A stretch of 64,000 nt of DNA. Origin: a bacterium (GTDB lineage: Bacteria > Patescibacteriota > Doudnabacteria > UBA920 > 2-01-FULL-46-14). Below, piece after piece: positions 55,122 to 61,148 of the stretch (positions are counted from its first letter, which is position 1; each line of letters opens with the position of its first letter). The translations under genes were made by a program, and so were the position numbers. Under the pieces are notes generated by a model. It had not been told where the DNA came from and did no database searches. It saw only the letters and a program-made list of their open reading frames with translations. The stretch spans positions 4,659-68,658 of the forward strand of contig JAUYKH010000041.1 in NCBI GenBank assembly GCA_030700065.1, written 5' to 3'.

Positions 55122-55196
55122 GGTGCCTGTAGTTCAATGGCCTGCCCGCCATCGCAAGCATGAGCTTGCTCAGGCGTTGCGGGCGGGTAGAACGCC
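55122..55196 (+). pseudogene. 5' fragment of tRNA-His (G-1, acceptor, D-arm; 28 nt) interrupted in the D-loop by a 47-nt GC-rich hairpin insert
   Basis: GGTGCCTGTAGTTCAATGG (55122-55140) + insert 55141-55187 (CCTGCCCGCCATCGCAAGCATGAGCTTGCTCAGGCGTTGCGGGCGGG) + TAGAACGCC (55188-55196). Identical to positions -1..28 of the intact tRNA-His 250 nt downstream. Confidence 0.45.
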
Positions 55197-55203
55197 TAAA
55201 ATC

Positions 55204-55440
55204 ATGTATTATACTTACGTTTTGGTAAGTAAAAAAGACGAGAAACAATATATTGGTTGGACCGATGATTTAAGACACCGAGTTGATCAGCACAATAAAG
55301 GATTGGTGAATGCGACCAAGAATAGAAGGCCTTTAACCCTGGAATATTATGAGGCCTGCAGGAGTAAAAGCAAAGCCATTGCTCGAGAAAAGTATTTCAA
55401 AACAGGGTTTGGCAGACGTTATTTGAAAAATCGGTTTTAA
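55204..55440 (+). CDS. GIY-YIG nuclease-family protein (UPF0213/YhbQ-like, 78 aa)
   Basis: MYYTYVLVSKKDEKQYIGWTDDLRHRVDQHNKG..EYYE..AIAREKYFK has GIY-YIG motifs. The in-frame N-terminal extension of the ORF track overlaps the tRNA fragment and is rejected. Confidence 0.65.
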   Translation: MYYTYVLVSKKDEKQYIGWTDDLRHRVDQHNKGLVNATKNRRPLTLEYYEACRSKSKAIAREKYFKTGFGRRYLKNRF

Positions 55441-55443
55441 TAT

Positions 55444-55518
55444 GGTGCCTGTAGTTCAATGGTAGAACGCCGCTCTGTGGCAGCGGTCACGAGGGTCCGA
55501 TTCCCTTCAGGCACCCCA
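55444..55518 (+). tRNA. tRNA-His (anticodon GTG) with genomically encoded G-1 and 3' CCA
   Basis: 8-bp acceptor G(-1)GTGCCTG/CAGGCACC, D-stem GTTC/GAAC, anticodon stem CCGCT/AGCGG with loop CTGTGGC, T-arm GAGGG-TCCGATT-CCCTT, then CCA. Confidence 0.75.
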
Positions 55519-55580
55519 CCAAGAAGGCATACCCAGTATTGACCGAAGTGCCTAAATAGATAGATTAGTTTAGCCAGACA

Positions 55581-55607
55581 AAAAATCGCCGAAAGGGCGG
55601 TTTTTTG
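55581..55607 (+). terminator. Rho-independent terminator (A-tract/hairpin/T-tract), simple member of a repeat family
   Basis: AAAAAATCGCC-GAAAG-GGCGGTTTTTTG. Confidence 0.5.
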
Positions 55608-55620
55608 TTATGGTGTAGAT

Positions 55621-56013
55621 ATGGAGAGTTACCAGAACGAACAGCAGAAACTATACCTTGAAGAACTGAAAGAGGTTTCTAAAAGGCGTAGTTTGAGAAA
55701 TGTTACTTTGCTTTCTGCTATGATAGAAGCACATATTTTTTCTTTGGCAAAAACATTTTTAGAGAAAAAAGGCGTTATTTATAGCCCATCAGAATTCGAC
55801 GAATATAGGATGTCAATAAACATTTTAAAATCTAATAATTTATTATCTCCAGACGAGTTAAGAGATGTTAATGAATTTCGTAGGTACAGAAAAGAGATTT
55901 TTCATAACCTATTTAAAGGAAAGCTAACCCGGGCTGGTTTGAACGACAACATTAATAAAGCTTGGACGATTGGTAAGAAGGTTGTTAAAAAATTGTCTCT
56001 TAAACAATTGTAA
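55621..56013 (+). CDS. Hypothetical alpha-helical protein with HEPN-like Rx4H motif
   Basis: 130 aa with ..EFRRYRKEIFHN.. (R-x4-H) near the C-terminus. Weak call. Confidence 0.35.
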   Translation: MESYQNEQQKLYLEELKEVSKRRSLRNVTLLSAMIEAHIFSLAKTFLEKKGVIYSPSEFDEYRMSINILKSNNLLSPDELRDVNEFRRYRKEIFHNLFKGKLTRAGLNDNINKAWTIGKKVVKKLSLKQL

Positions 56014-56056
56014 GAGTTTTATTTTTTGTTATGATAAACCCCGACCGGGGATATCA

Positions 56057-56410
56057 ATGATTTATTTAATAATAATTGGAATAATCGTTGTTTGGTCCAT
56101 AATTGCGTGGGCTGTTAGCAAATATAGGCAAGGAATACGCGACCGCGCCGCCCATGCCGTTTTAGATGACTTCAATTTTGAAGCCGAGAAACAAGAAATT
56201 CTCAATTTGGTTCCCGGCATCCTTCCCGCACCTCTACTTAATAAAGTGACTCATCAAAAGGAATTAGAAATTTACGCGCTTCGGAAAGAATACGAAAAGC
56301 AGTTTTGTCCTCGCGATCACGGCATTATGGTCCGTCGAGTTGGACACTATGGAACATTTTGGGGATGTGGTAATTATCCGAGATGCACATATACTAAGAA
56401 TAAATTGTAG
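56057..56410 (+). CDS. Membrane-anchored protein with C-terminal topoisomerase-type C4 zinc-ribbon
   Basis: MIYLIIIGIIVVWSIIAWAV TM helix. C-terminal CPRDHGIMVRRVGHYGTFWGCGNYPRCTYT matches the zf-C4_Topoisom pattern. Confidence 0.5.
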   Translation: MIYLIIIGIIVVWSIIAWAVSKYRQGIRDRAAHAVLDDFNFEAEKQEILNLVPGILPAPLLNKVTHQKELEIYALRKEYEKQFCPRDHGIMVRRVGHYGTFWGCGNYPRCTYTKNKL

Positions 56411-56412
56411 AC

Positions 56413-57531
56413 ATGGGATATTTTGAAACAAAAAAAGCAGATTTAGAAAATTTGATCGCCACTATCAGTAAAGAGAAGGCTGCTTTTGAGCAGGTCTTAA
56501 AAAGCGAAGTTGTATCGCTTGAAGATAAGATTTCTTGGTTTGAAAAATTGAAAGAGGGTGTTCAACAAATGGCTAAGGAGCGACAAGTTGGTTTTCCGTG
56601 GCTAGCAGAGGCCTACAAGGAGTTGTTTAAAATGCGCGATGAGGTTCTGGTTAAATACCTTAAGAATAAAAAACATGCTGCTATCCAAGCCAGTGAAGTT
56701 GTGAGAGAACAAGGCCGTTTGCGGCGTGAGGCGGTTAAAGAGGCAAAGATCGCCCAATACCTGGTCCAATACTATGAATCAATGGCCCCGTTCCTTCTAG
56801 ACTTTAAAGAGGAAGTCGATGTACCGACAGAAGAGGATCGGAAGTTGTTAGAGGAATATTCAGTCGAAGAAAAGCAGGATGAAGTTATTAGCTTTCTTGC
56901 AAAAGAAGAGTACAGAAAATTGCCAAGTGTAGAAAGAAATCAAATGGCACTCGACCGTTTTTGGAAGCGCCCGAAATCAAAGTGGTTAATTGGGCGGCTA
57001 TACGAGAGGTATGTTGGGTATCTTTATGAAGAGCAGGGTTATAACGTCGACTATATAGGCATTTTTAGAGGTTTTGAAGATTTGGGACGCGATTTAATTT
57101 GTAAAAAAGGGAATGAATTTATTATTATCCAATGCAAAAATTGGGCGCAGTTCAGAACGATATATGAAAAGCACATCTTCCAGTTCTTTGGGACAGTTTT
57201 TCAATATAAAGATGAAAATCCTGATAGACTCGTTAAGTCAATATTCTACACTGCCACGTCGCTTTCTGACCTTGCACGAAGATTTGCGAAAGAACTCGGC
57301 ATCGGCTTAATGGAAAATTTCAAATTGGATCAGCAGTACCCTTGTATCAAATGTAATATCTCCAAGGTCGATGGTACAAAAATATACCATCTTCCTTTTG
57401 ATCAGCAATATGATAAGACCAAGATTGAAGTTAAACGGGGAGAGTTTTATTGCAAAACCGCAAAAGAAGCCGAAGATAAAGGATTCAGGAGGGCGTTCCG
57501 ATATAAAGGTCTATCCAAGTCGAAAACGTAA
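56413..57531 (+). CDS. Restriction-endonuclease-fold (Mrr_cat, PD-(D/E)xK) nuclease-domain protein with N-terminal coiled-coil region
   Basis: YLYEEQGYNVDYIGIFRGFEDLGRDLICKKGNEFIIIQCKNWAQ is the Mrr_cat-type D..(E/Q)CK core. The N-terminal 200 aa are charged and helical. Confidence 0.55.
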   Translation: MGYFETKKADLENLIATISKEKAAFEQVLKSEVVSLEDKISWFEKLKEGVQQMAKERQVGFPWLAEAYKELFKMRDEVLVKYLKNKKHAAIQASEVVREQGRLRREAVKEAKIAQYLVQYYESMAPFLLDFKEEVDVPTEEDRKLLEEYSVEEKQDEVISFLAKEEYRKLPSVERNQMALDRFWKRPKSKWLIGRLYERYVGYLYEEQGYNVDYIGIFRGFEDLGRDLICKKGNEFIIIQCKNWAQFRTIYEKHIFQFFGTVFQYKDENPDRLVKSIFYTATSLSDLARRFAKELGIGLMENFKLDQQYPCIKCNISKVDGTKIYHLPFDQQYDKTKIEVKRGEFYCKTAKEAEDKGFRRAFRYKGLSKSKT

Positions 57532-58568: not shown

Positions 58569-58590
58569 GGAACAATTCCATGGAATTGTT
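58569..58590. repeat. Perfect 22-bp palindrome GAACAATTCCATGGAATTGTTC (copy 1 of a repeated palindromic element)
   Basis: Self-complementary, and its core AACAATTCCATGGAATTGTT recurs at 59992-60019. Confidence 0.6.
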
Positions 58591-58614
58591 CAATGACTCA
58601 ATATGTGAGCCGTT

Positions 58615-58682: not shown

Positions 58683-59414
58683 ATGAAATCACATGATGCT
58701 TTTGGTAAATACCTTCTTTACCAATACAAAAATTTGCCAAATAAGATAAATGAAATCGTTGAAAGAGACGACGGTTTTATCGAGGGCAGTTCTTATTCAG
58801 ACAGGTACTTTGAAGATTATCCAAAGTGGTCAGAAAAAGAAAAAAAAGCTATTGCGCTGGCACGAGGTAGGGTTTTAGACATAGGGTGCGGCGCGGGCAG
58901 ACATTCGCTATATCTGCAACGAAAAGGTTTTGATGTAACAGGGATTGATAATTCTCCTGGGGCCATCAAAGTTTGTAAATTAAGAGGGCTGAAAAAAACA
59001 AGGCTGCTATCTGTTGAACAGATAGGTAATTTCAAGCCCGACTCGTTTGATACCATCATGATGATGGGTAATAATTTTGGGTTATTTGGTAGCTCGCGGA
59101 AGGCCAAAACTCTTCTGGGAAAGTTATCCAAAATAACTTCTCGCCATGCGAAAATTATTGCCGAAAATAGAAATCCTTACAGGACCAATAGAAAAGTTCA
59201 TCTTTCGTACCATGAATTCAATAGAAAGAGAGGGCGTCTGGCCGGGCAACTAAAATTAAGAGTAATATTTAATAAGATAATCGGCGATTGGTTTGATTAT
59301 TTGTTTGTTTCCCCTCAAGAAATGAGAAAGATACTGAATGGTACTGGATGGAAAATTAAAAGGATAATTTCTGAAAAAAGTCCTGATTACATTGTGGTGA
59401 TTGAAAAGTTATAG
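58683..59414 (+). CDS. Class I SAM-dependent methyltransferase
   Basis: VLDIGCGAGRHSLYLQRKGFDVTGIDNS motif I. Confidence 0.6.
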   Translation: MKSHDAFGKYLLYQYKNLPNKINEIVERDDGFIEGSSYSDRYFEDYPKWSEKEKKAIALARGRVLDIGCGAGRHSLYLQRKGFDVTGIDNSPGAIKVCKLRGLKKTRLLSVEQIGNFKPDSFDTIMMMGNNFGLFGSSRKAKTLLGKLSKITSRHAKIIAENRNPYRTNRKVHLSYHEFNRKRGRLAGQLKLRVIFNKIIGDWFDYLFVSPQEMRKILNGTGWKIKRIISEKSPDYIVVIEKL

Positions 59415-59492: not shown

Positions 59493-59855
59493 ATGACAAA
59501 ACGAATTGACAAAAGGTTTGCGTATCAAAAAATGGGGTTTCACGAAAGTATTGTGCCGCAAGTTTTTGATGGGAAAATAAGTACTTGGAGATTAAGAGAC
59601 CACAAATTAAGAAAAGGCGATGTTGTGGCTTTTGAAAACAGTCAAACGGGAGAAATCTTCGGCTTCGGAAAGATAACCAAAGTCGTCAAAATAACCGTCG
59701 GACAGATAGACTTAAAGGACGAAACTCACTATAAAACATATAAAAATAGACAAGAACTCATAGGAGCATTCAAGCGTCATAATCCTACTTATAAAGTTAA
59801 CAATCATACACCAGTTTTTGCCTATACATACAAGTTCATAAAAATAAAACTATGA
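59493..59855 (+). CDS. ASCH (PUA-like) domain protein
   Basis: ..WRLRDHKLRKGDVVAFENSQTGEIFGFGKIT.. resembles the ASCH beta-barrel pattern. Confidence 0.45.
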   Translation: MTKRIDKRFAYQKMGFHESIVPQVFDGKISTWRLRDHKLRKGDVVAFENSQTGEIFGFGKITKVVKITVGQIDLKDETHYKTYKNRQELIGAFKRHNPTYKVNNHTPVFAYTYKFIKIKL

Positions 59856-59879: not shown

Positions 59880-60050
59880 ATCCAGCGAAGATGTTAGGGC
59901 AGAAGTTGAAATAAAGTAAGTTCTAATCCTGTTCCCGCCAGAGGCGGGCAGGCACGAATCCGCCCCGGGCAAACGGCTCAGCCGTTGAGCCGTTCAACAA
60001 TTCCATGGAATTGTTGAACCAGCCCTACCGAGGACGGACCTCGTTTTTTG
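59880..60050 (+). ncRNA. Candidate structured non-coding element ending in an intrinsic terminator
   Basis: About 170 nt with no ORF. Stable hairpins CCCGCC-AGAG-GCGGG, AACGGCTCAGCCGTT and tandem AGCCGTT are present. It also holds the 28-bp perfect palindrome GTTCAACAATTCCATGGAATTGTTGAAC (59992-60019) and terminator CGAGG-ACGGA-CCTCG+T6 (60029-60050). Confidence 0.3.
59992..60019. repeat. Perfect 28-bp palindrome GTTCAACAATTCCATGGAATTGTTGAAC (copy 2)
   Basis: Shares a 20-bp core with 58569-58590. Confidence 0.6.
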
Positions 60051-61105: not shown

Positions 61106-61136
61106 CCAAAAAATCGCCCAAAGGGCGATTTTTTGT
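61106..61136 (+). terminator. Rho-independent terminator (simple member of the AAATCGCC..GGCGATTTTT family)
   Basis: AAAAAATCGCCC-AAA-GGGCGATTTTTTG. Confidence 0.55.
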
Positions 61137-61148
61137 TATAATTCGGCT

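Follow-up and report, generated by a model that had tools for sequence, protein, structure and literature searches.

A predicted membrane-tethered Mrr-type nuclease encoded by a gene pair in a low-GC patch of a Doudnabacteria contig

Genes of the locus and their products

In this study, we analyzed a 64,000-nucleotide (nt) stretch of DNA (hereafter, the window) from a Doudnabacteria member of the Patescibacteriota (GenBank assembly GCA_030700065.1, contig JAUYKH010000041.1, positions 4,659 to 68,658), and in particular three co-directional open reading frames (ORFs), called here genes 1, 2 and 3, that follow a tRNA-His gene and its terminator-like hairpin (Table 1). A first-pass annotation of the sequence had pointed out this arrangement, which proved correct, and had described the products as a HEPN-like helical protein, a membrane-anchored zinc-ribbon protein and an Mrr_cat nuclease that plausibly form one system. 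These are genuine genes and not chance ORFs, because each of them has homologs: 14 for gene 1, at least 30 for gene 2 and more than 3354 for gene 3. The closest relatives of the window proteins belong to Patescibacteria. Identical proteins are named in NCBI as 'hypothetical protein', 'topoisomerase DNA-binding C4 zinc finger domain-containing protein' and 'restriction endonuclease' for genes 1, 2 and 3, respectively.

Table 1. Positions of the features discussed (window coordinates)
Feature	Position	Strand	Basis or remark
tRNA-His (GTG)	55445..55518	+	ARAGORN; Rfam tRNA 61.6 bits
Terminator-like hairpin 3' of tRNA-His, with flanking A and T runs	55579..55611	+	Sequence; direct-repeat family D1
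Gene 1, stand-alone minimal HEPN-fold protein (predicted), 130 residues	55621..56013	+	Rx4H at R90/H95
Promoter-like site with extended -10 (TGTTATGAT), gene 1-gene 2 spacer	56008..56035	+	Consensus scan, 9/12 matches with TG; consensus match only
Gene 2, membrane anchor protein (predicted), 117 residues	56057..56410	+	Start from homologs P0123-P0126 and gene calls on the identical contig
Gene 2 transmembrane helix, residues 2-21	56060..56119	+	Kyte-Doolittle 19-residue mean 2.72
Gene 2 topoisomerase-I-type zinc ribbon, residues 84-115	56306..56401	+	Pfam PF01396 (Zn_ribbon_Top1), 35.7 bits (threshold 32)
Gene 3, nuclease subunit (predicted), 372 residues	56413..57531	+	Starts 2 nt past the gene 2 stop
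Gene 3 residues 1-55, variable N-terminal helix	56413..56577	+	Split form only; proposed docking helix for gene 2
Gene 3 residues 56-190, conserved helical region	56578..56982	+	GFPWLA...KKHPA...YYE..PFL
Gene 3 residues 191-300, PD-(D/E)xK (Mrr_cat) nuclease	56983..57312	+	Predicted catalytic E198, D227, Q240, K242
Gene 3 residues 311-361, sunset-like C-terminal domain	57343..57495	+	IKCN...IYHLPFDQQYD...EAE..GFRRA

The product of gene 3 was assigned to the PD-(D/E)xK nucleases. Its IIIQCK motif, on which an Mrr_cat call had been based, corresponds to Q240-x-K242, and the call is borne out by the predicted fold and by the scores of homologs. Nine homologs, one of them 60% identical, score 29-45 bits against Pfam Mrr_cat (threshold 21). 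The window copy itself reaches 20.7 bits with Mrr_cat_2 (threshold 22) and PF04471 is not listed for it, and an identical database protein carries a precomputed PF04471 match. In the AlphaFold2 (AF2) model, residues 170-365 have predicted local distance difference test (pLDDT) values mostly above 80. The alpha-beta-beta-beta-alpha-beta core of the fold is present according to this model and to Foldseek, whose best match is MspJI (E 6e-5), followed by Cdn1, EndoMS/NucS, AF1548, Card1/Can2 and Hjc; single-sequence and profile searches yielded no solved relative. The catalytic D/E-K residues, which had been singled out for checking, are intact: E198, E206, D223, D227, Q240, K242, E252 and Q257 are invariant among 62 aligned sequences (38-100% identity) and likewise in a 37-sequence alignment.

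The regions on both sides of the catalytic domain were also characterized. K86, P126, D156, Q177 and A179 are invariant in the same 62 sequences, and the helical region of residues 56-190 has no match in Pfam, NCBIfam or PDB. No Mrr_N winged-helix domain was detected in gene 3 by Pfam or NCBIfam; the N-terminal half is instead modelled as long helices with pLDDT below 60. The most conserved stretch of the protein (block conservation up to 0.91) is a sunset-like C-terminal domain that the first-pass annotation had missed, of which residues 312-361 score 26.5 bits against NCBIfam sunset NF051437 (cutoff 27). Our literature search found no publication on the sunset domain. A thermonuclease-family protein and two functionally unannotated plasmid proteins (plasmid matches H5-H7) terminate in this motif too, and PHROG 21287, annotated as 'membrane associated protein', matches it as well.

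Gene 2 appears in the ORF list at 55970-56410 (146 residues). Its true start is the ATG at 56057, because homologs and the gene calls on an identical contig place the start there, which leaves a 43-nt spacer to gene 1. A transmembrane segment combined with a topoisomerase-type ribbon had been proposed for this protein, and both elements were recovered (Table 1). As no charged residue precedes the helix and K22, R24, R28 and R30 follow it, the positive-inside rule predicts an N-out/C-in topology. The equivalent helix is found in 31 of 33 gene 2 orthologues from related loci (Kyte-Doolittle mean at least 1.8), and the ribbon is also present in 31 of the 33. The two orthologues devoid of the ribbon (loci L017 and L049) have kept the helix, the conserved juxtamembrane helix K-H-R-Q-x-I-R-D-x-A-A and a DFDYEKEK motif. 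The orthologues fall into two size classes, one of approximately 97-123 residues and one of approximately 150 residues with an additional C-terminal helix.

The putative ligands of the window ribbon are C84, D87/H88, C104 and C110. In the first knuckle, CPRDH replaces CxxC, with D87/H88 in place of the second cysteine, and this CP(R/H)DH variant is conserved in the three closest homologs. Most gene 2 orthologues have all four cysteines (CxxC...Cx5C), and the orthologue from Flagellimonas scores 59.7 bits with Zn_ribbon_Top1. Binding to single-stranded DNA is known for the related zinc ribbons of topoisomerase I (PMC4678816), so that the ribbon of gene 2 may contact incoming DNA, which we regard as a lead only.

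The gene pair and its membrane anchor among relatives

Relatives of gene 3 were detected in 107 genomes from many phyla by a scan of one genome per species. The gene 2-gene 3 pair recurs in Nomurabacteria, Paceibacterota and other contigs, where a 2-nt gap separates the genes or they overlap by 1-4 nt, and where the surroundings differ. In about 30 loci, an orthologue of gene 2 immediately precedes the nuclease gene, and an upstream partner was observed in nearly all loci with at least 56% nuclease identity (80 loci kept). To describe these relatives, we use 'split' for loci in which a small upstream protein supplies the transmembrane helix, and 'fused' for those whose nuclease has its own N-terminal transmembrane helix; transmembrane segments were called with a hydrophobicity window and not a dedicated predictor, neighbouring genes by a simple longest-ORF rule, and structures were predicted for single chains. 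Among 78 classifiable non-redundant genomic homologs, 36 were split, 32 were fused and 10 had no detected anchor, three of these last having a zinc-ribbon partner slightly below the hydrophobicity cut-off. In 32 of the 36 split loci, the gap between stop and start is -4 to +5 nt. An N-terminal transmembrane helix was also found in 54 of 66 unique proteins from viral contigs.

The constant feature of the family is a membrane anchor, in cis or in trans, which is observed in about nine out of ten classifiable relatives. The zinc ribbon is an extra of the split lineage, most of which is from Patescibacteria: single-gene relatives have the N-terminal helix and no ribbon, and in some Bacteroidota copies, the partner combines a transmembrane helix with a coiled coil and likewise has no ribbon. 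The view that the pair represents a split fusion of zinc ribbon and nuclease thus puts the emphasis in the wrong place, as it is the anchor that is provided in cis or in trans; even within the split lineage, two gene 2 orthologues are devoid of the ribbon.

Conservation is distributed unevenly between the two proteins. Among 25 split loci, pairwise identity averages 0.29 in gene 2 and 61% over the whole nuclease protein. Within gene 3, the average is 0.35 for residues 1-55 as opposed to 0.72 and 0.71 for the nuclease and sunset domains, respectively, and single-gene relatives align with gene 3 only from about residue 45-60 onward. Judged from sequence, this pattern fits a variable targeting or anchoring part joined to a conserved enzyme. 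The low identity of residues 1-55 and the starting point of the single-gene alignments are consistent with these residues being the docking partner of gene 2.

Both forms occur in cultured organisms. Flagellimonas lutimaris A26-3 has the split form (L035 4711-6110), with a 95-residue ribbon partner and a 60%-identical nuclease, and the single-gene form was found in Hymenobacter plasmids, Nostoc flagelliforme and Arenibacter nanhaiticus. Four Hymenobacter plasmids carry the nuclease as a stand-alone copy; on one plasmid (NZ_CP141185.1), the single-gene form adjoins a DUF4238 gene. The subtype with a partner of about 150 residues (L009 5341-7080; L010 2990-4729) has a 67-residue Xre-type helix-turn-helix (HTH) gene whose end is only 1 nt away from the anchor gene, so that HTH, anchor and nuclease genes form a trio in this order, and a serine recombinase gene lies about 1.4 kilobases (kb) 5' of the HTH gene in L010.

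The persistence of the anchor bears on the possibility that the pair encodes an ordinary Type IV (modification-dependent) Mrr-like enzyme, which would cut modified foreign DNA in the cytoplasm and use its anchor for localization or stability only. Such an enzyme would account for the Mrr_cat catalytic domain, for the NCBI label 'restriction endonuclease', for weak PADLOC matches to mREase_IV and to the Mrr-like domain of ZorD, and for the fact that no DNA methyltransferase gene consistently adjoins the pair. However, neither Mrr_N nor any other recognized modification-reading domain was found with Pfam and NCBIfam, and an anchor, whether in cis or in trans, has been kept by about 90% of relatives, which speaks for an essential and not an incidental feature. 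We therefore consider this explanation unlikely.

Gene 1 has a different history from the pair. The first-pass annotation called it helical and HEPN-like on account of its Rx4H motif, and the AF2 model agrees, being all-helical with five helices (pLDDT 92.7) in the manner of a HEPN helical bundle. R90 and H95 are at least 90% conserved in a 15-sequence family alignment, and the motif reads RNxxxH in most relatives. Foldseek found nothing significant for gene 1 in PDB, no curated HEPN profile in Pfam or NCBIfam matches it, and the sole signal in PADLOC was a weak match to CARF_HEPN (E 0.0078). We accept 'HEPN-like' as a description. An exhaustive HMMER search of 1.84 billion representatives recovered the 14 homologs mentioned above, and a word-indexed search only one (61% identity).

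The proposal of a three-gene system, in which the HEPN protein would act with the anchor and the nuclease, draws on the common direction and adjacency of the window genes across the 43-nt spacer, and on the presence of conflict-type domains in all three. It is contradicted by the absence of any gene 1 homolog from all of the roughly 30 other loci that bear the pair; the unrelated genes around the sole close homolog of gene 1 and the promoter-like site between genes 1 and 2 also speak against it. We see almost no chance that it is correct. Of the co-occurrence expected for the three genes, the part that concerns genes 2 and 3 holds and the part that includes gene 1 does not. Because the neighbours of its close homolog differ and other pair loci are devoid of it, gene 1 is a separate and rare gene; and as a promoter-like site precedes gene 2, genes 2 and 3 are suggested to be a transcription unit of their own. 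Among known HEPN proteins, gene 1 is closest to the HEPN-MNT (HepT) toxins and the HEPN domains of Csm6/Csx1. It differs from them in that no HEPN model of Pfam or NCBIfam matches it, no MNT or other antitoxin gene adjoins it, and its family is very small.

Genomic context of the pair and of the low-GC patch

Neighbouring genes were examined for 26 split-type loci. They include Xre-type HTH genes (4), resolvases (3), AriA/AbiL-like ATPases (3), HepT/MNT pairs (2) and Fic (2), and further DpnI with a methylase as well as housekeeping genes. PADLOC 'control protein' models match four HTH neighbours. A tRNA gene lies within about 1 kb in approximately 8 of 27 split-type loci, and by a rough estimate, this proximity is a few-fold above expectation. 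The identities of these tRNAs vary (Pro, Gln, Ser, Asn, Thr and Met at other pair loci) and some loci have none, so that a conserved linkage to tRNA-His was ruled out. The earlier description of a membrane-associated nuclease in a tRNA-adjacent accessory patch thus stands with respect to the nuclease and the low-GC patch, and falls with respect to a conserved position beside tRNA-His.

These neighbours, together with the organization of the pair, are also relevant to an abortive infection or toxin mechanism. Here, gene 2 would hold a non-specific nuclease inactive at the membrane, and phage-induced membrane damage or loss of gene 2 would free the nuclease, which would then degrade all DNA and kill the cell. 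The tight coupling of the two genes, the small and fast-evolving partner of a conserved enzyme, and the toxin-antitoxin genes and Xre-type regulators that often adjoin them are in line with such a mechanism, as is the toxicity of SNIPE, a membrane-anchored nuclease compared below, once its transmembrane helix is removed (10.1101/2025.11.03.685801). Nevertheless, the anchor of the fused forms cannot dissociate without proteolysis, and the sequences give no sign of a protease site or sensor. It seems to us decidedly improbable that the pair acts in this way.

A second kind of neighbourhood was observed on viral contigs, where IMG/VR yielded 170 relatives with 38-50% identity. Among 145 neighbouring ORFs at 19 viral loci, 15 CI-like repressors, five S24 peptidases and several integrases were identified, in addition to Cro/CII-type regulators, anti-repressors and replication initiators. 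In one locus (L160), the nuclease gene lies 2 nt 3' of a CI-like repressor gene in the same direction; in another (L141), it lies between ImmA/HTH genes and an integrase gene, with an endolysin gene beyond. Copies on predicted temperate phages hence occupy the repressor/integrase module. This neighbourhood is the usual site of prophage genes that are expressed in lysogens and exclude other phages.

In the window, genes 1-3 lie in a low-GC patch from about 55.5 to 61 kb, where the guanine-cytosine (GC) content is 0.36-0.44 compared with 0.48-0.55 in both flanks. The tRNA-His gene is the left edge of this patch and no part of the nuclease system. A scan of 54-62 kb with Rfam detected the tRNA alone. 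The hairpin that follows the tRNA has a second copy at 61107-61139, on the other side of the low-GC stretch and 5.5 kb away, which is identical at 31 of 33 positions; no integrase is encoded between the two. The right-hand copy comes after a cold-shock gene. The cold-shock gene and the DEAD-box helicase gene that flanks the patch are a native pair in relatives of the helicase. The two hairpin copies may be either insertion scars or merely similar terminators. The best relatives of the flanking helicase, which were sought for signs that the islet is an insertion, are only 58-67% identical and without synteny, and yielded no such sign.

Several repeats were noted in and beside the patch. The sequence TTTTTTGTTATGRT (repeat D2), which resembles an extended -10 element, occurs at 55600-55614, 56021-56035 and 61128-61142, in each case 7-22 nt 5' of a start codon (genes 1 and 2 and the DEAD-box helicase gene, respectively). 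A partial copy of tRNA-His at 55122-55196 repeats its first 28 nt, G-1 and the D-arm among them, and carries a 46-nt GC-rich hairpin (55141-55186) as an insertion in the D-loop; the 19 nt at 55122-55140 recur exactly at 55444-55462. Between this partial copy and the intact tRNA-His lies a 78-residue GIY-YIG ORF (55204-55440). From its sequence, the region 55122-55518 resembles a GIY-YIG element of very small size that has settled at the tRNA-His gene. Two further GIY-YIG matches among the fetched loci have no tRNA close by, and in one relative of the flanking DEAD-box helicase, a GIY-YIG gene lies immediately 5' of the helicase gene. Finally, a 44-nt inverted repeat (58571-58614 and 59972-60015; 84% complementary), which includes the 20-nt palindrome AACAATTCCATGGAATTGTT, encloses a gene for an S-adenosylmethionine-dependent (TehB-like) methyltransferase (58683-59414) and a 120-residue ORF (59493-59855).

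A proposed role at the membrane and comparison with known systems

With moderate confidence, we propose that the products of genes 2 and 3 are the two subunits of a membrane-tethered DNA endonuclease that cuts incoming DNA, gene 1 being an unrelated neighbour. The gene 2 protein would insert into the membrane with its N-terminus outside, and its cytoplasmic helix would pair with the variable helix at the N-terminus of gene 3, keeping the nuclease, which is probably dimeric, at the inner face of the membrane and off the chromosome. Both the zinc ribbon and the sunset domain would bind DNA, and DNA crossing the membrane by phage injection, conjugation or uptake would be cut at the point of entry. 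Because cleavage would take place on entry, the cell or lysogen could be protected without a cognate methylase. The low-GC patch, the repressor/integrase surroundings of the viral copies and the mobile-element and toxin neighbours fit the context of a conflict system. No known defence system was recovered by the PADLOC check that had been recommended: PADLOC-DB v2.0.0 (2023) gave no significant match for genes 2 and 3, and none for the ten homologs, split as well as fused, that were also examined. No description of this nuclease family was found in our literature search, which covered the sunset and Zn_ribbon_Top1 domains, membrane nucleases, defence in Patescibacteria and superinfection exclusion.

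Several points weigh against this proposal. We infer everything said on the function of the pair from sequence, predicted structure and context, and the contact between the two proteins and the topology of gene 2 are likewise deduced, with the N-terminal half of gene 3 being the part modelled at low confidence. About 10% of relatives have no detected anchor. Because three different queries found no homolog among 50,697 deposited phage genomes, the link to phages rests on the predicted proviruses of IMG/VR. Moreover, the best 120 of the more than 3354 gene 3 homologs are 63-72% identical over their full length across Patescibacteria classes, which is unusually high for a defence gene and may indicate a different, constrained role or recent transfer. 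The pair in locus L007, one of several with a housekeeping context, has ndk and rpmB as neighbours.

The last two points are also in favour of a housekeeping function in DNA uptake or nucleotide salvage, namely the degradation of competence-imported DNA in bacteria with small genomes (Patescibacteria, Pelagibacterales). Many carriers do have streamlined genomes, sequence conservation is high, and the L007 pair lies about 3.7 kb 3' of comEC and directly after ndk. On the other hand, the family is patchy across phyla, its neighbourhoods are variable and often contain mobile elements, and copies are located in prophage immunity modules; the catalytic domain is predicted to be cytoplasmic, and no consistent linkage to competence genes was seen. 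It is therefore highly improbable that the pair serves DNA uptake or salvage.

Returning to the proposed tethered endonuclease, we suggest more tentatively that the pair and its single-gene relatives constitute a large, unrecognized family of membrane-tethered PD-(D/E)xK nucleases that would provide a second, independently evolved entry-point immunity. Its members would be found in the immunity regions of temperate phages and in tRNA-adjacent islets of small genomes, and in Patescibacteria the anchor might have moved to a separate, fast-evolving protein whose zinc ribbon would sense the incoming strand. Discrimination between self and non-self by location, and not by sequence or modification, has one worked example so far, SNIPE; if this reading holds true, the recurrence of its layout in an unrelated nuclease family would suggest that the strategy is general. 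With its thousands of members, which occur in prophage immunity modules and in Patescibacteria, the family would offer a candidate system for the latter, whose defence repertoire is poorly known. The genes are now annotated merely as 'restriction endonuclease' and 'topoisomerase zinc finger domain protein', and cultured carriers such as Flagellimonas lutimaris A26-3, Hymenobacter and others would be useful for experiments.

Among known systems, the position of the fused homologs beside a CI-like repressor gene, or co-transcribed with it, near an integrase gene recalls the defence genes of prophage lysogeny modules, such as lambda rexAB 3' of cI and the Sie proteins encoded between integrase and repressor. 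RexAB and the Sie proteins are not nucleases, and the proteins are unrelated to those studied here. In fusions of NERD or Mrr_cat with Zn_ribbon_Top1, a PD-(D/E)xK-type nuclease is joined to a PF01396 ribbon, whereas the ribbon here resides on the anchor protein and not on the nuclease. Because its single-gene relatives have no ribbon, the pair is not simply such a fusion split in two. Gene 3 shares the catalytic domain family and the D...QxK pattern with the Mrr and Mrr_cat Type IV enzymes (PF04471, PF13156), which are likewise stand-alone nucleases without a methylase. In contrast to Mrr, the gene 3 family has no Mrr_N and adds a membrane anchor, a coiled coil, the GFPWLA helical region and the sunset-like C-terminus, and the Type IV models of PADLOC fail to recognize it.

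The closest parallel in layout is SNIPE, in which an N-out transmembrane helix is followed by a cytoplasmic GIY-YIG nuclease that cuts phage DNA during injection (10.1101/2025.11.03.685801). The gene 2-gene 3 family is predicted to have the same plan, with a single N-terminal, N-out transmembrane anchor, an elongated helical middle and a cytoplasmic C-terminal nuclease. Both combine a highly variable N-terminal region with a conserved nuclease, and neither has a methylase partner. The two are nevertheless not homologous. SNIPE consists of DUF4041 and GIY-YIG, whereas the family described here combines an unassigned helical region with a PD-(D/E)xK nuclease and a sunset-like domain, and DUF4041 was found neither in the window proteins (E up to 1) nor in nine homologs (E up to 0.01). 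The present family is known from sequences only, and in the window, unlike in SNIPE, the anchor has a gene of its own, whose product bears the zinc ribbon as well. The locus thus presents an Mrr-type nuclease in a predicted membrane-tethered layout that is otherwise known from one unrelated system, SNIPE.

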